Below are positions 4,993 to 18,874 of a stretch of 20,000 nucleotides of DNA, piece after piece. Position numbers and translations under genes: made by a program. The notes beneath the pieces are model-generated. The model was not told where the DNA came from and searched no databases. It saw only the letters and a program-made list of their open reading frames with translations. The DNA comes from an uncultured virus (IMG/VR IMGVR_UViG_3300037423_001642) (Duplodnaviria > Heunggongvirae > Uroviricota > Caudoviricetes), in the IMG/VR virus record IMGVR_UViG_3300037423_001642, positions 56,914 through 76,913 of that record. One strand, 5' to 3'. Position 1 is the first letter of the stretch. Each line of letters opens with the position of its first letter.

Positions 4993-5187
4993 TCACCATG
5001 TGTCGTCATACTCCGTTCCCGGCTTCACCAAGAACGTTCCGCAGACCATGCATTTCGCCACCATTTCGGACCCATAGGTTCCCTTCTGCCAATCGGCTTC
5101 TTCGATTTCGAGCTTGGATTCGCAACGGGAACATGTCATCAGAATTGGCTTGGCAAGAGACTTTGTGCCACGTTCAAGCAGTTTCAT
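4993..5187 (-). CDS. Small zinc-ribbon protein
   Basis: CSRC...CMVC pairs. Confidence 0.75.
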   Translation of the reverse strand: MKLLERGTKSLAKPILMTCSRCESKLEIEEADWQKGTYGSEMVAKCMVCGTFLVKPGTEYDDTW

Positions 5188-5671
5188 TTTTCACGTCTGG
5201 AATAGTTAGATTGAACCACTTGGCGAATAACTCCAAATTTTCACGCATTTTTTCCGGTGAATCTTCTCTAAGAAAAACCGCCGTGTCATGACAATGCTGC
5301 AATTGTCGCAATGCTGAACGTGAAATATTTTCGAATAATTTCGTCCATCGAGGATCGCCAGTAAACCGAGCAACATCAGTGTCCAACATCACGAGCAATG
5401 TCTTACTGTTGTTTGCATCATTCACAAATTCGTCCGGTACACAGTGGCCAATGGCACATTTGCGATTGTTTACCTTGTCACGATACAGGCAGGAATTGGA
5501 TGTAGTTGCCGAGCTACCATAGGAGCGAAGAAAACCTTGGCTGGCGAGCCCGATATAGGCTTTGTTGAAAACTTCCTGTAGATTTTCATATGGGACAATG
5601 TAGTCCAATTCCTTGAGGTATTTCGGACCAATATTGTGCAGTACAAATTCAATTTCAGTTTCACTTACCAT
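5174..5671 (-). CDS. Hypothetical early protein, 'KCAIGHCVPDE' paralog family
   Basis: PYENLQEVFNKAYIGLASQGF...CLYR...KCAIGHCVPDEF...LQHCHD...FAKWFNLTIP. Confidence 0.9.
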   Translation of the reverse strand: MVSETEIEFVLHNIGPKYLKELDYIVPYENLQEVFNKAYIGLASQGFLRSYGSSATTSNSCLYRDKVNNRKCAIGHCVPDEFVNDANNSKTLLVMLDTDVARFTGDPRWTKLFENISRSALRQLQHCHDTAVFLREDSPEKMRENLELFAKWFNLTIPDVKNETA

Positions 5672-11107: not shown

Positions 11108-11269
11108 ATGTGTCATGATAGCCTAGAAAATCATTATATGCAGAACTTCTATCTCATGTTCGACTACAACCAAAACATGGAATATTGGGACGATATGATA
11201 CCTTTCGAGCGTGAAATATACATGACCATCCTAGCACAACGCATTGAAGAGAGAGCGCATGACAGATAA
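11108..11269 (+). CDS. 51: Baseplate hub assembly catalyst, gp51-like (53 aa)
   Basis: Translated by hand: MCHDSLENHYMQNFYLMFDYNQNMEYWDDMIPFEREIYMTILAQRIEERAHDR. The MIP(F/W)EREIY motif is characteristic. Confidence 0.85.
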   Translation: MCHDSLENHYMQNFYLMFDYNQNMEYWDDMIPFEREIYMTILAQRIEERAHDR

Positions 11270-13160
11270 CAACAACGGAACAGCACAAACACCATCACAA
11301 GGCAAGGTAGAGCTTCCAAAGCCCCCAAAACAAGACATTTGGGGGCGTGATCTTCCTTTGCCAAACGTCAACCAAAAGCAGGATGACGAAAAGCGTGATA
11401 AGCTGATTGTGAATTCCATTGAAAAGGTCGTTGCCGAAAATTCCGAAATTTTCTCGGATATCGTTAAGCAGTTCAAGACATATACCGACTCCATTCGTTC
11501 ATCGAACCAAAATTTTCTATTGAAGCAAGGCCGTGTCATGCTTGCGGAAATGCGCAAGTCGTTTCTGGAAACCATGGCCGATGAAGCTGGCAAGTCCGGA
11601 GATGAAGCCAAGGCCGGAACCGTCAATTACACCTTGCGAGTTGTGACCAACAATCTGGACCGACTTATCAAAGAACAGGAAGAAGCCAACAAGGCAGTCC
11701 GTGATAGATTAGACAAAGCTAATAAAACCGCTTCCGACAATTTACAGACGGTTCAAGCCGATTCGAAGGAAAACGAGAAAGATCGTAAGGCCCGTGCGAA
11801 CGCAGAGAAAAAGGCTGAAATCGCCCGCAAAAGGAAGGATGCCGAAGATCGAGAAAATGAGAAAGAAGGAAAACTTCTAAAGGGTATCAAAAAATTTATT
11901 TTTGGCCAGACCGCAGCCGAACGCCGGGAAGAAGCCAAGAACAAGCCTAAGCGTTCTGGTGGCCTACTCGACTCCATGGGGTTGGATTTCTCGTTTAGCG
12001 GGATTCTTTCTATGATAACCAAAATTGGGCTTGGTGCAGCCGGTCTATTTGCTGTTCTAGGGACTAAGGGCACAGAAGAATTATTCACTAAACTTGCGCC
12101 TGTTTTTGGTACAATTATCAAAGATATTACCGAACAAATCATTGAACCAATGATTCAAACGATCTTTTCGGCTGTTAAGAACATGATTTCGGACAGTATC
12201 GCTAATTCCCTTGGCGTGTCTAATGGTCCGGCAACCGGTAGCGAACCGCCGCCAATCGCCGGGACACACGATGTTAAACGTGGTCCAGAGGATGCTCAAT
12301 GGTTAGCTGACCATCCGGCAGCTATAGCTACACGTGGCATAGGTCGAGGCATGGAGCATTTATACGATTTTGGTAATCTAATGTATGATCGTTGGATGAA
12401 GATGAACGATATTAAACACGGTTTCATCGCTCAGCCACAAGAACCCGTGATCTTGAATTCCAATGAATATGACATGCAACAGCAAGCGGAAAATGGCGCT
12501 GGCGCTCTTGCCGCTGGTGAACGCAAGGCACGTTCATTGGACGAAGCACCTTTGCCATATTTGAAGCCAGAAATCGACAAAAATCCATTGTCGAAAGCCG
12601 ATATGCTGACTGCGAAAATGGCACAGGAAGATGAAGCCAAAGCAAGAGCATCACGCATCTATGATGCGCAGAATGCCAAGCTTGCCCGTGAAGACGCATT
12701 GCCACAATCTTTCAAGGATTCCGTGAACAATTTCTTTGGCACAGTCGCAAAGAAACTGGACGATGAACGCAAAAAGGAAAAGGCCGATATTGCCGACAAG
12801 AAATCGCAACTCGGAAATGCCTTTGGTTCATGGGCCGATAGCCTCGAAAGTACGATGCACGACACGTTTAAGAGCTTCTATGATGCCGTCTCGGGCGGTG
12901 CACAAAAGAATGCTTTCCAGTCGATGTTAGACTCGATGGACTCGTTGAAACACAATGATTTCAGCGACATGGTTGATTCAATGGATAAATACAAAGCTAC
13001 AACTAACAAGATGAAGGCGGCTTCACAAATGAAACAAGCGCCAACACCTATTATAGTTCAAGCACCAAGTACAGTCAATCAGTCAACAACCGTATCGAAT
13101 GGAACGACAATCAATTCTTCTGTTTCTGTAGGAAACAATAGAAAGTTCCTTGGAAGATAA
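11259..13160 (+). CDS. Probable tail tape-measure / baseplate hub protein (gp29-like)
   Basis: About 633 aa, helical and coiled-coil, with a central hydrophobic segment and a PIIVQAP..VNQSTTV C-terminal tail. Lies directly after gp26/gp51. Alternative TTG start at 11244. Confidence 0.7.
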   Translation: MTDNNNGTAQTPSQGKVELPKPPKQDIWGRDLPLPNVNQKQDDEKRDKLIVNSIEKVVAENSEIFSDIVKQFKTYTDSIRSSNQNFLLKQGRVMLAEMRKSFLETMADEAGKSGDEAKAGTVNYTLRVVTNNLDRLIKEQEEANKAVRDRLDKANKTASDNLQTVQADSKENEKDRKARANAEKKAEIARKRKDAEDRENEKEGKLLKGIKKFIFGQTAAERREEAKNKPKRSGGLLDSMGLDFSFSGILSMITKIGLGAAGLFAVLGTKGTEELFTKLAPVFGTIIKDITEQIIEPMIQTIFSAVKNMISDSIANSLGVSNGPATGSEPPPIAGTHDVKRGPEDAQWLADHPAAIATRGIGRGMEHLYDFGNLMYDRWMKMNDIKHGFIAQPQEPVILNSNEYDMQQQAENGAGALAAGERKARSLDEAPLPYLKPEIDKNPLSKADMLTAKMAQEDEAKARASRIYDAQNAKLAREDALPQSFKDSVNNFFGTVAKKLDDERKKEKADIADKKSQLGNAFGSWADSLESTMHDTFKSFYDAVSGGAQKNAFQSMLDSMDSLKHNDFSDMVDSMDKYKATTNKMKAASQMKQAPTPIIVQAPSTVNQSTTVSNGTTINSSVSVGNNRKFLGR

Positions 13161-13769
13161 ATGCAATATTGTACATATTTGACTCTGTATAGAGGAAATA
13201 AGTTACCTCCATTTTATATTGGATATACCTCAATCGCAAAGATAGAACGTGGCTATAGAGGAACAGTTACATCGAAGCAGTACAAATTAATATGGAAACA
13301 AGAGCTTAGAGATAATCCAAATCTATTTAAAACAGTGATTATCTCTAATCATGATTCAAAAGAACAAGCTAAGCAACGTGAAACAGAACTTCAAAGTTAC
13401 TTTTCTGTTCACACTAACCCAATGTACATCAATAAAATAATAAGTGGAGCATTACTATTTGCTCCCGGTCATTCAGAAGCTACTAAACAAAAAATCCGAT
13501 TAACAAAATTGGGTTCTAAAAATCCATTCTATGGGAAGACACATTCAGAAAAAGTTAGAAGTAATATTTCCAATAGTGCCAAAAATAAATCAGATAAACA
13601 TAGAACAAAATTATCGGCCAAAATCAAGCTTTTGAACGCAAATAAACGCAAATCCATAACGGATGGATACACAACTTTTGACAGTGTAAATGAATGCGCT
13701 AAATATTACAACATACATAGAAGGTCTGTTCTTAGAAAAGTACACGCCGGGCAATTTAGGTATCTGTAA
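13161..13769 (+). mobile_element. Free-standing GIY-YIG (Seg-like) homing endonuclease with NUMOD3 repeats and C-terminal HTH
   Basis: CTYLTLY...FYIG, GYRG, catalytic-type E (QRE), YINK, HSEATKQKI...NPFYGKTHSE, FDSVNECAKYYNI. AT-richer than its flanks. Confidence 0.88.
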
Positions 13770-14488
13770 TGCCATCATATACAATTCAAAAAATTCTTGA
13801 AGATGCCGCCAAAAAGAACCAAATCTTTCAAAAAAATGAGGAATCCCATAAGTGGTTTTACGAAAGAAGTAGAAGAACACTAACCAGTTCTTCTAAGCTC
13901 ATTCGTGAATACTCTCAATCAGATTTGAGAACCACAACACAACTTCAAATTGGTTGTCTTTATTTCTTCTTTTATGACCCTAAGTGGAAAGACGAGCTAC
14001 CATATTATGATCGCTTTCCATGCGTGTTTCTGACTGATGTTTGGAAGGATGCAGGCGGGCGCACACAGGTTGCCGGATTGAACCTCCACTATCTTCCCTA
14101 CAAACAGCGAGCATTGCTGATGGATGCATTGTTGGACCTAGAAAACAATGCCACGCTCACGAAAGATAAGAAGCTCAAAATTTCGTATGGCATTTTGAAG
14201 AAAGCGGCAGCTTCGAAGTGGTTTCGGCCAACATACAAGCGCTATCTCAAATCACATGTCCGCTCACGTCTTGTCAAAGTTCCTTATGAGGAATGGACAG
14301 TAGCGGCATTCCTACCAGTTCAAGAATTCGAAAAGGCCACGACACGTGATGTTTGGGCCGATTCCGTTCGCCGGATTCAAGGCAAACCAAGAAAGGCTAA
14401 ACCACGTTCAGGCAATACCAGTTCCGTTAAGCCAGCTTCGGTGCCATCAGTGAAACCAAGACGAAATAGAAATACACCAACGAAATGA
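13769..14488 (+). CDS. 2: DNA end protector protein, T4 gp2-like
   Basis: GCLYFFFYDPKWKDELPYYDRFP, GLNLHYLP, KRYLKSHVRSR, FLPVQEFEKA...VWADS. Confidence 0.95.
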   Translation: MPSYTIQKILEDAAKKNQIFQKNEESHKWFYERSRRTLTSSSKLIREYSQSDLRTTTQLQIGCLYFFFYDPKWKDELPYYDRFPCVFLTDVWKDAGGRTQVAGLNLHYLPYKQRALLMDALLDLENNATLTKDKKLKISYGILKKAAASKWFRPTYKRYLKSHVRSRLVKVPYEEWTVAAFLPVQEFEKATTRDVWADSVRRIQGKPRKAKPRSGNTSSVKPASVPSVKPRRNRNTPTK

Positions 14489-15162
14489 AAGGTTTCTTTA
14501 TCACCAACATAGAGAATTCAGCTTCTTACCAGATTGGGAAAGCAAATGTTGCCAGAGCTAACGACTTTGGCAACTTGAAAGCTGAAATATTTGAAGGTGT
14601 TAAAGGGAGCGAAGCCTATCCTATTTTCGAAAAAGAGAAAATAAAATTTCTCGATATCAAGTACCAATCAGAGCTTTTCAAAGAACGCAACAAAGAGAAA
14701 AAATACGATGAACAACCCGGTCAGGCTGGTTGTTTCGCTTCTCACTATTTGTTGTGGAAAAAATGCATAGACTTAAACGAGACTATTGGTATTTTCGAAT
14801 ATGACGCCAAACAAACAAGAACTTTGCCAAAGAATATAGATTTTGAATCGATATTACACCTTGGCGGTTGGCATCCCATCAAAGATCAAGATGATGCAAC
14901 TCTTATAAATGGAACAAGAGGATTGCACGAATACTTGGGTTACAATCGTTGGGGTTTCAAAAATGTAATGATTGGATTGTATGCTTATCTATTGAAGCCG
15001 AATGCAGCAAAGATATTGGTAAAAACAGCAAAAACAAAGGGTTGGTTTCCGGCTGATAGATTTATGTCAACAGACATAATTCAAATGAAAAAGCAAACAT
15101 ATAGTCCATTTCTATTTACAGCCGTTCCAATAATGAGTTTAACAGGTAACTATAATGTATAA
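14485..15162 (+). CDS. Glycosyltransferase family 25-like
   Basis: GQAGCFASHYLLWKKCIDLNETIGIFEYDA, YAYLLKPNAAKILV, PAD. Confidence 0.85.
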   Translation: MKGFFITNIENSASYQIGKANVARANDFGNLKAEIFEGVKGSEAYPIFEKEKIKFLDIKYQSELFKERNKEKKYDEQPGQAGCFASHYLLWKKCIDLNETIGIFEYDAKQTRTLPKNIDFESILHLGGWHPIKDQDDATLINGTRGLHEYLGYNRWGFKNVMIGLYAYLLKPNAAKILVKTAKTKGWFPADRFMSTDIIQMKKQTYSPFLFTAVPIMSLTGNYNV

Positions 15163-16738
15163 TGGCATCGAATTTCTAAGGGGCACGGGCGAGCAAATCG
15201 ACTATACCCCGGAGATGCAAGCAGAAATCGTAAGATGTTACAACAGTTATGAGTATTTCGTAGAGAATTACATTAAGATTGACGATAACTCTGGTAATCT
15301 CAATCTAATCAAGCTGTATGACTATCAAAAGCGACTACTTAAGCTTATTCACTCAAACAAATTCGTTATTTGTAAGTTCCCTCGCCAGTGCGGTAAGACT
15401 ACTTCGATGGCGACCTATATTGTTTGGTGTATCATCTTCAAAAAGCGTTTCAAGGTTGGTGTTGCCGCCGATAAGGACGAAACGGCGACCGAAATTATGG
15501 ACCGTGTGAAGACTGCTTACGAAAATCTGCCATATTGGATGCAACAAGGCGTCAAGAAATGGGACGCTCACAAGGTCGTGCTTGAAAACGGCTCCCGTGT
15601 GGACGCTTCCGCTACCACCAAGAAAACCATGCGTGGTAAGACCTACAACCTTGTTTTGCTTGACGAATTTGCGTTCGTGGACCAGAACATCGCTGACCCA
15701 TTCTTTACCGCTATCTACCCCGTTATTTCGAAGAATGATCCGACCAAGCGTATCGAGGAACAGACCAAACTTATCATCATCTCGACACCTAACGGCATGA
15801 ATCACTTCCACAAGCTCTATGTGGAAGCCGAAAAGAAACAGAACACGTTTAAGAACATTGAAATTCGCTGGTACGAAGTGCCGGGCCGTGATGAAAAGTT
15901 CAAACAAGAAACAATCCGGAACATTGGCGACGACCGTTGGGAACAAGAATATGACGGCTCATTCCTTGGTGCCTCCACCAGCTTGATTCCGCCTAAGAAG
16001 CTGAAAACGCTTACTTGGGAAACACCGTTCGAAACATTCGAGGATATGGAATTTTATCGCCAGCCCGAGCCCGGTCACACATACTTCATTTCCGTTGACG
16101 TGTGCCGTGGTCGTGGTCTGGACTATCACGCTATGTCGATCATCGATATCACGCAACTGCCATATGTTGTGTGCGCCACCTATCACAACAATATGCTGGA
16201 TACGATGTTGTATCCGACTCTGATTGTGAACATGGCTAAGCGCTACAATGAAGCGTTTGTGCTAATCGAATTGAACGACATTGGTAAGCAAGTCGCTGAT
16301 ATCTGTGTTGAATTGGAATATGAAAATATGCTTTCAACCGTGACCAAAGGACGCTCCGGACAGGTGTTGACGGTTGAATCGGGTAACGCCATGGGTCTAA
16401 CCATGTCGAAGCCGGTGAAATCCACAGGCTGTTCTAACCTTAAGTCATTGATTGTAAACGATCAATTGATCCTGAATGACTACAAATACATTCAGGAATT
16501 GACCACGTTTGAAATTGCTTCTGGCCAGTACAAAGCGGCCCCCGGTGCGCATGACGATATGGTCATGTCTCTTGTGACATTTGCGTGGGCAACGACCGAA
16601 GTTTACTTCCAAGATTTGTTGGATGCTAACATTCGTGAAATGCTCTTCACAAAGCGCATCCAACAAATGGAAGATGACTTGGTGCCTGTAGGATTTCTAG
16701 GCGATATGAGCGGTGATGATACGCCAGTTGATTTTTAA
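15155..16738 (+). CDS. 17: Terminase large subunit, T4 gp17-like
   Basis: Adenine-binding LYDYQ, Walker A PRQCGKTT, Walker B LVLLDEFAFV, coupling IIISTPNG, nuclease ISVDVCRGRGLDY and HDDMVMSL. Confidence 0.98.
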   Translation: MYNGIEFLRGTGEQIDYTPEMQAEIVRCYNSYEYFVENYIKIDDNSGNLNLIKLYDYQKRLLKLIHSNKFVICKFPRQCGKTTSMATYIVWCIIFKKRFKVGVAADKDETATEIMDRVKTAYENLPYWMQQGVKKWDAHKVVLENGSRVDASATTKKTMRGKTYNLVLLDEFAFVDQNIADPFFTAIYPVISKNDPTKRIEEQTKLIIISTPNGMNHFHKLYVEAEKKQNTFKNIEIRWYEVPGRDEKFKQETIRNIGDDRWEQEYDGSFLGASTSLIPPKKLKTLTWETPFETFEDMEFYRQPEPGHTYFISVDVCRGRGLDYHAMSIIDITQLPYVVCATYHNNMLDTMLYPTLIVNMAKRYNEAFVLIELNDIGKQVADICVELEYENMLSTVTKGRSGQVLTVESGNAMGLTMSKPVKSTGCSNLKSLIVNDQLILNDYKYIQELTTFEIASGQYKAAPGAHDDMVMSLVTFAWATTEVYFQDLLDANIREMLFTKRIQQMEDDLVPVGFLGDMSGDDTPVDF

Positions 16739-17169
16739 TCAACAAACTTGATCAACTCACCCTCAACGGTATCTATCCACAAGACGGCTTTTTGCGCTCC
16801 GATTTTCATGGTTGAAACAAACCATTTGTCTGGGTTTGAATGACCAAGGTTATCACAAATAATCCAGTCAAATGGCTTCTCTCGATGAATAACCTTTTGT
16901 AGCCAAAACTGGTAACCGCCAGACTTTGGCATAACAGTTACCTTTTCAGATATGCCGTAACCTTCCATGATATATGGTCTGCACTCGATATAAAGGACAT
17001 TTAGCCCTTCATCAGTCAGCTTGTTGGCATATTTTGCCATCCAAGTTGATGCTCCACACATGCGAGGCAAAGCAAACTTCCACAATCGCTTTGTATCACC
17101 ATGAATTTCTTCTGTCAGGCGAATTCTCTTCTCAATTGCATCGAATACAGATGTATCAAAAGTGTCCAT
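16735..17169 (-). CDS. Small degenerate P-loop protein resembling the terminase ATPase core
   Basis: LPRMCGASTWMAKY vs gp17 FPRQCGKTTSMATY; FDWIICDN vs YNLVLLDE. The ORF extends to 17208, but ATG 17169 is the likelier start. Confidence 0.6.
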   Translation of the reverse strand: MDTFDTSVFDAIEKRIRLTEEIHGDTKRLWKFALPRMCGASTWMAKYANKLTDEGLNVLYIECRPYIMEGYGISEKVTVMPKSGGYQFWLQKVIHREKPFDWIICDNLGHSNPDKWFVSTMKIGAQKAVLWIDTVEGELIKFVD

Positions 17170-17398
17170 TGATCGTAAAATGCCTTTTAACGTTATCGGG
17201 AATATCATTCCATTGCGAAGAACGCATGGAAATATGATTCAGATACCGACTGTTCATGAAACCATTATGAAAATAGCCAATGATCAGTGCCAATTCATAT
17301 GTCGTTATGTCTTCTTTTGGTTTATATTTGACCGAAATTGATTTGTCGAACAATCCAGTCACTACAGATTTGTTCGAACCTTCGATATGATCACCCAA
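17156..17398 (-). CDS. Hypothetical protein
   Basis: 80 aa, YKPKEDITTYELA...HF; short overlaps with both neighbours. Confidence 0.7.
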   Translation of the reverse strand: MGDHIEGSNKSVVTGLFDKSISVKYKPKEDITTYELALIIGYFHNGFMNSRYLNHISMRSSQWNDIPDNVKRHFTINGHF

Positions 17399-17621
17399 AC
17401 CAACAAATCTCCATCAGAGGAAGTTTTGCGGCGTCGAATGATTTACCTTGATCGGTGAATTTCTTACGGCGAAGTTCGATTTGCTTTTCTGTCAAACCAA
17501 TCCAGTGCGCCGTATATTCGATATTGTTCGAACCCAAATACTTGATTAATTTATCGAGTTTGTCGAAATTAGCTTCGTTGAAGAATCTTGTTTGCATCTT
17601 CTCTGTTGTCGTCCTTTCCAA
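17391..17621 (-). CDS. Hypothetical protein
   Basis: ORF in the gene run; the start may be the internal ATG (MQTRFF). Confidence 0.7.
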   Translation of the reverse strand: MERTTTEKMQTRFFNEANFDKLDKLIKYLGSNNIEYTAHWIGLTEKQIELRRKKFTDQGKSFDAAKLPLMEICWFG

Positions 17622-17975: not shown

Positions 17976-18617
17976 TCAAACACCAAACTCTTCTTTGAAT
18001 TGCTGTCTAAGCTTGGCAAATTCTAATAATCGATCCTTCGTATGTCCTTGAAAAACTTGAAGTGTTCCGAATTCATCAACCACAAGAATACGATACTTAT
18101 TTATGGAAATACCGGTGCGTTCCCGAAACATTTCGGCATACACATTTACTTGCATTCGATAGCCTTCGACGTATTCGGCCTTCTTTTCTTTCGTGGTTCC
18201 CTTGAAATCCACAATTTCAGGCTCTTCGAACACGCCCATTAGATCGGTGCGCCCGGCTGTTTTCAGTCGTTTGGAGTACAATGGTGTTTCAATGCACCAT
18301 GCCTCTTTCATGTTGTCGTCAAGATGCTTGCGAAGCGTATTGAACAACGACCGGTGAAACGGAGTCGGTGGCGATACCGGTTGGCCAGAGATATAATCCT
18401 CCATCATCTTGTGAATGATGTTGCCACGTTCCGCCGCTCGATTGCGGGTAAATTCCGCCTTCTCTTCGCCTAGACGCTTACGCCACTTTTCGAGCCCTTC
18501 CTTGGCCCGGAGCGCCAGCACGGTCGTGACACTTGGAAACTTACCATCTGGTGTGATGTAAAAGCGCTTTCCATCTTCCTGAACCGATTGGATATCGGGT
18601 AAATTGAAATCTCTCAA
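17976..18617 (-). CDS. PD-(D/E)XK-family exonuclease (Cas4/MGME1-like phage exonuclease)
   Basis: RFYITPDGKFPSVTTVL, RGNIIH, IE..LYS...AGRTD, IVDFK, Q...YAEM. Confidence 0.92.
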   Translation of the reverse strand: MRDFNLPDIQSVQEDGKRFYITPDGKFPSVTTVLALRAKEGLEKWRKRLGEEKAEFTRNRAAERGNIIHKMMEDYISGQPVSPPTPFHRSLFNTLRKHLDDNMKEAWCIETPLYSKRLKTAGRTDLMGVFEEPEIVDFKGTTKEKKAEYVEGYRMQVNVYAEMFRERTGISINKYRILVVDEFGTLQVFQGHTKDRLLEFAKLRQQFKEEFGV

Positions 18618-18874
18618 TTTTCTTCGGAATCCGGATGATCTTCCCGGTGAATTTCATAGGCATAAGAAATGCCTTCCCAATTATCGACGCCAGCGGCTTC
18701 TAGCGAGGATAGCCATGCGTCACGCTTAAGCAATTCAGTATACTCTTCAATAGGAATGGAAACTGTTGGAATAGCGATAAGTTCTTTCGTCACTTCTCTA
18801 TTTCTTTCTAGCTCTTTGCGAGCCTCTTGTTGTGCTTGTCTCAATGCGTCTGTGTAGCTGTAACTAGAAGTCAT
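18614..18874 (-). CDS. Small acidic helical protein with GVDNWEG motif (possible gp5.9-like nuclease inhibitor)
   Basis: VSIPIEEYTELL...LEAAGVDNWEGISYA. The family call is from recall and unverified. Confidence 0.55.
   Translation of the reverse strand: MTSSYSYTDALRQAQQEARKELERNREVTKELIAIPTVSIPIEEYTELLKRDAWLSSLEAAGVDNWEGISYAYEIHREDHPDSEEN

Follow-up and report, generated by a model that had tools for sequence, protein, structure and literature searches.

Stand-alone ATPase-like mini-proteins of phages have become newly interesting because two of them, vs.8 and Ksap2, are seen by the Avs2 sensor while their own function is open. KpAvs2 is activated by Ksap2, a 111-amino-acid (aa) protein of phage Bas60 whose sole structural likeness, a weak one, is to a terminase ATPase domain (Bechon et al., 2024; PMC11564622), and vs.8 of phage T4 is an uncharacterised ATPase-like homologue of the ATPase domain in the T4 terminase, its Walker A and B motifs both conserved, that is toxic together with EcAvs2 (Evans et al., 2026; PMC13601566). 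The latter report also describes a bridging ATP of EcAvs2 that contacts the ATP and magnesium shell in the terminase active site, counts Ksap1, Ksap2 and possibly vs.8 as non-terminase activators whose function is left open, and suggests that these might be anti-defence proteins which Avs2 learned to sense (PMC13601566). Stand-alone terminase-like mini-ATPases are a described kind of protein, and those tested so far trigger the sensor. Here we analysed a 144-aa open reading frame (ORF) that lies beside the large terminase gene (TerL) in a 20,000-nucleotide stretch of DNA from an uncultured virus (the window).

The window is the final 20 kb of the 76.9-kb IMG/VR record IMGVR_UViG_3300037423_001642, and since the same sequence sits within a complete 256-kb record (G001), its phage is a jumbo phage. 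An earlier note, made from the sequence of the window alone, had taken the ORF for an inactive miniature of the terminase ATPase, perhaps a decoy or a packaging regulator, and knew no described example. The last point is out of date, because vs.8 is a described stand-alone terminase-ATPase homologue, though one whose Walker motifs are intact (PMC13601566). Our analysis places the ORF in a family that can be understood as a variant, without the Walker A lysine or the Walker B glutamate, of the phage stand-alone mini-domains of the additional strand, catalytic glutamate (ASCE) class, with a strictly conserved pocket and a home in soil jumbo phages. What emerges is an unannotated family of clear fold, for which we lean towards a binding rather than a catalytic role, and which is much less striking than the first reading proposed.

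Loss of the catalytic residues and conservation of the pocket

The ORF and TerL are convergent and their stop codons overlap (16735-16737 for the ORF, 16736-16738 for TerL), in agreement with the tail-to-tail arrangement reported in the earlier note. The two genes and the motifs of the ORF are as follows.

16735..17169, minus strand: 144-aa ORF (P0001), a stand-alone degenerate ASCE-type P-loop domain
17044..17070, minus strand: P-loop of the ORF, LPRMCGAST (residues 34-42), Walker A Lys replaced by Ala, Arg36 and Gly39 invariant
16849..16872, minus strand: Walker-B-like strand FDWIICDN (residues 100-107), Asp106 invariant and followed by Asn, not by the catalytic Glu
16768..16788, minus strand: AVLWIDT, the last strand (residues 128-134), which takes the motif-III/sensor position; predicted strand 125-135
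15155..16738, plus strand: T4-type TerL, 527 aa (Terminase_6N, 1.2e-17; Terminase_6C, 4.8e-10)

The inner ATG at 17169 (MDTFDT...) is the start in the protein-collection copy and in all close homologues; an in-frame upstream ATG at 17208 would give a 157-aa form (16735..17208, minus strand) with 13 additional residues. No terminator-like site was found between TerL and the ORF, and the promoter and terminator scan overall remained at chance level. The segment PRMCGASTWMAKY of the ORF and the Walker A region PRQCGKTTSMATY of TerL, whose Walker A motif FPRQCGKTT lies at ~15377-15403, are identical at 8 of 13 positions, and a single pairwise comparison by BLASTP returned 14/31 identities around Walker A (E = 1e-4). 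The exchange of Lys for Ala in this segment, the Walker-B-like motif with Asn in place of Glu and the AVLWIDT strand behind it were all decoded in the order that the earlier note had given. The protein stops at residue 144, right after the motif-III-like strand, and is without the C-terminal RNase-H-like nuclease domain, again as that note had it.

A word-indexed search recovered three close homologues of the 144-aa protein (83, 59 and 52% identity), and a profile search (HMMER) of 1.84 billion cluster representatives gave 18 matches at E ≤ 1e-3. Fifteen of these matches were proteins with the same motifs, 119-146 aa in length except for one of 256 aa, which carries an N-terminal extension. 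Three repeat proteins of 505-1016 aa (P0017, P0018 and P0020) matched in a GGY-type repeat alone and were left out of the alignment, and a 319-aa tail-module protein (L004), which shares only an EKPFDWII stretch, was judged unrelated. The family alignment (A2; n = 18) joined the 15 profile matches to the window protein and to the two further close homologues of the latter.

Five columns of this alignment are invariant (P35, R36, G39, A48 and D106). At the Walker A lysine position the members carry Ala (7), Val (7), Thr (3) or Ser (1) and never Lys (0/18), and the Walker B aspartate is followed by Asn (12), Thr (3), Cys (2) or Ser (1) and never by Glu (0/18), so that the double loss seen by the earlier note in one protein is consistent among its homologues. 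The rest of the predicted nucleotide pocket is strictly conserved: Arg36, Gly39 and Asp106 (18/18 each), Ser/Thr41-Thr42, and, at the tip of the last strand, Asp133 (16/18) and Thr134 (15/18), which with the preceding Ile (17/18) form a near-invariant I-D-T. As judged from the aligned motifs, the catalytic Lys and Glu are lost throughout the family, and the remaining pocket is the best-conserved part of the protein.

The family is known only from metagenomic phage contigs, among them two complete jumbo phages (242-256 kb, with T4-type terminases), and is new to annotation. A tblastn search of 50,697 named phage records with P0001, P0012 and P0016 found no match, a pattern scan of 185,579 species genomes produced 602 pattern matches and no relatives, scans of viral contigs with P0005, P0008 and P0007 likewise gave no relatives, and a metagenome scan with one family alignment returned a single contig of 1.2 kb. 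There was no family match above noise in Pfam, NCBIfam or PADLOC. Ten of the 18 members matched phrog_2586, a 166-position profile of unknown function, at E ≤ 1 (best 1.4e-5); the window protein itself came only near E 0.1 (0.09-0.1), the window TerL gave a weak 0.052, and the PHROG is unannotated. The sequencing runs that hold positions 16500-17500 of the window are of DNA only, from soil or rhizosphere only, and contigs from four such runs were identical to the window throughout this interval, with zero differences.

Predicted fold and structural neighbours

An AlphaFold model built with the 18-sequence alignment had a predicted local distance difference test score (pLDDT) of 85.8 and a predicted template modelling score of 0.82; it superseded an earlier model from 4 sequences (pLDDT 64.7) along with the searches made with it. 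Its elements run helix, strand 1, P-loop, helix, strand, helix, strand, helix, Walker-B strand, helix and long last strand, an order that we take to correspond to motifs Q, I, Ia, Ib, II and III of helicase and terminase domains.

Foldseek returned 53 matches in the PDB at E ≤ 1e-3, with RecA first (8.8e-5) and no terminase among the best 50. In a wide structure search T4 gp17 reached Z 8.2 (rank 28), the HK97 terminase 8.1 (rank 32) and the PhiV-1 terminase 8.0 (rank 46); helicases, RecA and KaiC stand above terminases in the structure searches, although the Z-score gaps between helicase and terminase matches lie within ~1 unit. Terminases accounted for 0/50 entries in two structural match lists and for 1/50 (rank 37) in BFVD, where the neighbours were viral superfamily 1 and DnaB-like helicases and small uncharacterised jumbo-phage proteins. 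In the ESM Atlas, a search by structure led to ResIII/DEAD helicase domain 1 and T2SSE, and a search by features to unnamed viral clusters alone (66, 51 and 57 members).

The predicted fold is an ASCE/RecA-like P-loop core, and terminase is not singled out by the structural comparisons. The earlier note had named a non-P-loop fold as an outcome that would refute its reading, and this did not occur; as for the best profile and Foldseek matches to Terminase_6N or gp17 that it had named as support, none of the 18 members matched the Pfam family Terminase_6N (PF03237) at E ≤ 10, and helicases, RecA and KaiC ranked higher in the structure searches.

Specificity of the sequence similarity to terminase

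The layout shared with TerL comprises an aromatic-Gln helix that precedes strand 1 (YQ in TerL, WQ in many of the family), a PRQxG-x-TT P-loop, an RG(x5)hhhhD stretch and a final hhhh[ST] strand. The N-domain of T4 gp17 (Terminase_6N; PDB 2o0h) has the same ASCE fold and motif order, with a PRQxG P-loop and an RG before Walker B, whereas the 144-aa protein is without the Lys, the catalytic Glu, subdomain II, the nuclease domain and the Pfam match of such an ATPase domain.

We searched 1603 six-frame ORFs of at least 50 aa from the complete 256-kb genome with the family profile, unfiltered (--max). After the protein itself (1.2e-50), TerL was the best non-self match (E = 0.004, 13.5 bits), in two collinear blocks that cover Walker A and the RG...Walker B region. 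A DnaB-like helicase (G001 179229-180629) came next (E = 0.071), and the other 18 ORFs of at least 100 aa with a Walker-A-like pattern had E > 3 or were unlisted. Since TerL is the best non-self match among 1603 ORFs, its likeness to the ORF exceeds chance.

Profile-profile comparisons with hhalign set this likeness against other P-loop families, whose alignments were drawn from Pseudomonadota genomes after removal of loci cut by contig ends or of ambiguous strand. For each family, the local score with its probability and the global score were as follows.

SRP54 (control, n = 26): local 39.5, 83.3%; global 33.2
Own-clade TerL (n = 121): local 39.2, 80.0%; global 43.0 (93%, 132 columns)
Prophage Terminase_6N (n = 19): local 39.0, 82.8%; global 32.5
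AAA_14 (control, n = 21): local 35.8, 82.0%; global 21.6
ResIII (control, n = 28): local 25.9, 22.3%; global 18.5
DnaB_C (control, n = 26): local 24.0, 6.5%; global 1.7
T2SSE (control, n = 29): local 20.5, 1.6%; global 7.4
RecA (control, n = 20): local 19.9, 1.9%; global 6.1
AAA_30 (control, n = 5): local 17.0, 0.8%; global 1.2

Column-shuffled nulls peaked at 14.8-16.9, and the alignment to the 121 own-clade TerL N-domains spanned 103-132 columns, N-terminal helix included. Under the same settings, well-separated P-loop families score 27-69 against each other (SRP54-RecA, 43.2; TerL-AAA_14, 47.4). A control-free comparison with TerL alone under other settings (94.7-96.4%) was not relied on. 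In an hmmsearch of PDB sequences, Mycoplasma FtsY came first (E = 0.0054), with no terminase at E ≤ 10.

Judged by its sequence profile, the family clearly derives from P-loop proteins. Three sequence matches are equally good, terminase being one and SRP54, which conflicts with the predicted fold, another: SRP54 reaches 83.3% in hhalign and its fellow SIMIBI protein FtsY is the best PDB sequence match, yet no SRP/SIMIBI chain occurs among the top 50 structural matches. Though suggestive, the lead that TerL takes in global alignment and among the ORFs of its genome is small. What likeness to terminase there is belongs to ASCE proteins in general and tilts towards terminase slightly at most. What the earlier note had called a terminase-ATPase look-alike stands as a miniature, Walker-dead P-loop domain; a likeness to terminase in particular is unsupported as the note put it, TerL (39.2) being level with SRP54 (39.5) and AAA_14 (35.8) in local mode.

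Binding, catalysis and partnership as readings of the conserved pocket

Because conservation is highest in the pocket although both catalytic residues are gone, we favour binding over turnover. The reading towards which we lean is that of a non-hydrolysing pseudo-NTPase, an adaptor or regulator that would act by binding and is encoded in an accessory, probably early or middle, gene block. Canonical turnover of nucleoside triphosphates (NTPs) would be absent; the protein may hold a phosphate-bearing ligand, a nucleotide, with no or slow hydrolysis and, alternatively or additionally, its pocket face may dock on an active ASCE ATPase or on DNA. The apparent selection on the pocket face is more in keeping with ligand binding or docking than with a passive look-alike, in which the active-site residues could drift. 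With an exonuclease and a gp5.9-like RecBCD inhibitor encoded in it, the minus-strand block suggests DNA metabolism or host takeover no less than packaging.

17976..18617, minus strand: PD-(D/E)XK exonuclease (PDDEXK_1, 1.4e-5; phrog_298, 1.4e-57)
18614..18874, minus strand: T7 gp5.9-like RecBCD inhibitor, 86 aa (PF25708, 1e-18; phrog_6234, 3.4e-13)

If the protein does bind a nucleotide or an ATPase partner, it would offer a compact model of a viral pseudo-enzyme regulator. Several points weigh against this reading. The conservation of the pocket fits an atypical active enzyme, with Arg36 replacing Lys, equally well, and binding without hydrolysis is deduced from motif loss. Furthermore, the immediate neighbours differ between the two phages with genomic context, this context covers two lineages only, and only two annotated genes speak to the role of the block.

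An atypical yet active NTPase or phosphotransferase, in which Arg36 would stand in for the missing Lys and Asp133 or another acid for the missing Glu, appears unlikely to us. Such an enzyme would be expected to keep its pocket residues as the family's most conserved columns and to retain the Mg-coordinating Thr/Ser and Asp, as is the case here. However, in 18/18 members the Walker A Lys gives way to A, V, T or S, residues that are small or hydrophobic, a loss typical of inactive P-loops, the protein has no second domain for a substrate site or an arginine finger, and none of the kinase families matched above threshold.

We give similarly little credence to an accessory role like that of the RecA/Rad51 paralogues, in which a degenerate subunit would cap or modulate a phage recombinase or DnaB-like helicase in concert with the neighbouring exonuclease and RecBCD-inhibitor genes. 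The DnaB-like helicase of its own genome is the second-best non-self match (E = 0.071), the exonuclease and gp5.9-like genes lie in the window, and an exonuclease gene is two genes off in the complete 242-kb phage (G002); against this, the hhalign matches to RecA and DnaB_C are weak (19.9-24.0, 2-7%), and the differences in structural ranking are within ~1 Z unit of helicases and terminases. Rad51 paralogues, Elp4/5/6 and FlaH, whose RecA/ASCE cores are among the structural matches of the 144-aa protein, have impaired Walker motifs and act as structural partners. Unlike the family, they are cellular and larger, and they show no sequence relationship to it.

The reading closest to the earlier note takes the protein for a paralogue of the TerL ATPase N-domain without catalysis, made either as a decoy that titrates terminase-sensing immunity (Avs1-3, Upx) or as a dominant-negative or timing regulator of packaging. 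In its favour are the similarities to TerL set out above (the E of 0.004 in the genome search, the BLASTP match, the first place of own-clade TerL in global hhalign at 43.0 over 33.2 for SRP54 and 32.5 for Terminase_6N, and the shared motifs and helix) and the precedent of vs.8, a stand-alone terminase-ATPase homologue of T4-like phages (PMC13601566). Against it stand the local tie with SRP54 and AAA_14 at scores within the range between P-loop families, the empty result with Terminase_6N, the lack of a terminase in the PDB-sequence search and the low structural ranks (28, 32 and 46). The two reports add that the small terminase-like proteins Ksap2 and vs.8 trigger Avs2 rather than block it, and that EcAvs2 contacts terminase-bound ATP, which a P-loop without its Lys may not hold (PMC11564622; PMC13601566).

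Direct comparison with these proteins also counts against a terminase paralogue, homology to either being undetected. T4 vs.8 (NC_000866 64253-64912, 219 aa, GRQSGKS...IIDE) resembles the family in being small, stand-alone and ASCE ATPase-like, in belonging to a T4-type phage and in having its gene away from the structural genes, and shares with it an RQxG-x-[ST] P-loop, an 'AN' in the next helix and an RG...hhhhD Walker-B region; it differs in keeping the Walker A Lys and the Walker B DE and in being ~75 aa longer. With a vs.8 profile that is shallow, at two sequences, no homology to the family was detected (hhalign 5.7-9.5%, score 22.5-24.0; hmmsearch 4.1 bits). The search for vs.8 relatives had found 6 IMG/VR loci, of which 5 were translated and 4 dropped for in-frame stops, and no vs.8 homologue was found in the complete 256-kb genome. 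From those two sequences, vs.8 matched prophage Terminase_6N at 95.9% (E = 5e-9), against ~83%, tied with SRP54, for the 18-sequence family. Ksap2 shows no kinship with the family by hhalign (0.75%); it has no P-loop-like motif in the aligned region and is by experiment an activator of Avs2, not an inhibitor, and, like the family, it is restricted to a narrow phage group.

The terminase N-domain is one candidate among the ASCE branches for the family's descent, at a chance that we put at roughly one in three, and a terminase-directed function lies well below that figure. A more specific version, in which an offshoot of the terminase N-domain has lost Lys and Glu and kept the shape of the pocket so as to serve as a non-activating competitor in terminase-sensing immunity or to hold back the packaging motor until infection is late, strikes us as very doubtful; such a protein would lack the ATP with which Avs2 makes contact and would still engage partners or sensors that address the active-site face of terminase. 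The decoy idea finds no support here and, by analogy, runs against what is known of similar proteins, which makes it unlikely. Should terminase or Avs-type sensors nonetheless prove to be its partners, the protein would be a first counter-measure of such a kind. In the literature searched, mostly at listing level, we found no description of a terminase mimic that inhibits Avs and no terminase pseudo-ATPase; in a 2026 anti-defence review (PMC13728456), the word 'terminase' occurs 0 times. On balance we regard the catalytically dead terminase paralogue, whether decoy or packaging regulator, as very improbable.

Gene neighbourhood in the window and in related phages

Of the distant family members, one (P0011) could be placed on a long contig. 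It lies at 26025-26435 (minus strand) in G002, a complete 242-kb record with terminal repeats, whose TerL (13734-16559, plus strand) is 72% identical to that of the window and is interrupted by ~1.2 kb. There the homologue is ~9.5 kb from TerL, with an endolysin gene and some ten further genes between them; it sits amid small unknown genes, two genes from an exonuclease (phrog_107), and its immediate neighbours are unrelated to the 80-aa ORF upstream of the window protein. The loss of adjacency speaks against a tie to terminase. That the homologue and TerL share the same genomic quarter in both complete phages might be taken in favour of one; this is ordinary synteny, and the tail-to-tail junction is particular to the window's phage. 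P0005 is recorded on a Joint Genome Institute contig of 23,664 bases, and a TerL with 85% identity to that of the window on one of equal length, which hints that P0005 may be linked to that TerL within ~20 kb.

In the window, the minus-strand block has three small unknown ORFs, the exonuclease gene and the RecBCD-inhibitor gene upstream of the 144-aa ORF. On the plus strand, TerL is preceded by genes for a tail tube protein, a baseplate-hub-like protein, an HNH endonuclease, a gp2-like DNA end protector and a family-25 glycosyltransferase. The neighbouring features not yet listed are as follows.

17156..17398, minus strand: hypothetical ORF, 80 aa, directly upstream of the 144-aa ORF and overlapping its start by 14 nt
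14485-15162, plus strand: family-25 glycosyltransferase (PF01755, 2.9e-14), directly upstream of TerL and overlapping its start
13161-13769, plus strand: HNH homing endonuclease (phrog_10820, 4e-24), between a 638-aa unknown gene and the gp2-like gene
11244-13160, plus strand: 638-aa ORF between the baseplate-hub-like and HNH genes, with no PHROG match at 1e-4

None of the window proteins was recognised as a small terminase, whose expected place before TerL is taken by the glycosyltransferase gene. The PF25708 match of the gp5.9-like protein covers residues 37-79, its C-terminal half, and leaves a ~36-residue N-terminal extension without explanation; its gene (18614-18874) shares 4 nt with the start of the exonuclease gene downstream (17976-18617). 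Two ORFs of the window's long minus-strand block, at 359-808 and 5174-5671, have matches to phrog_17693 (7.9e-16 and 2.2e-16), whose function is unknown, and are probably paralogues. The HNH family phrog_10820 also occurs near the family member in the 242-kb phage (L009:2713-3435).

Compared with the terminases of T4-like cyanomyophages, TerL itself reaches no more than 45% identity. In G002 its counterpart is split at the Walker-A region, with residues 2-90 and 81-523 matching in two pieces ~1.2 kb apart, and several TerL homologues of the window TerL's clade are 649-884 aa long with PF14528 or PF03161 matches. Because of this split and of these long proteins, inteins or homing-endonuclease insertions in the terminase ATPase site are suggested for the clade. 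A T4-type TerL 39% identical to the window's was also seen at 53986-57569 of NVVV01000063.1, a 156-kb contig assigned to a Robiginitomaculum metagenome-assembled genome, which is probably a phage contig binned with that genome.

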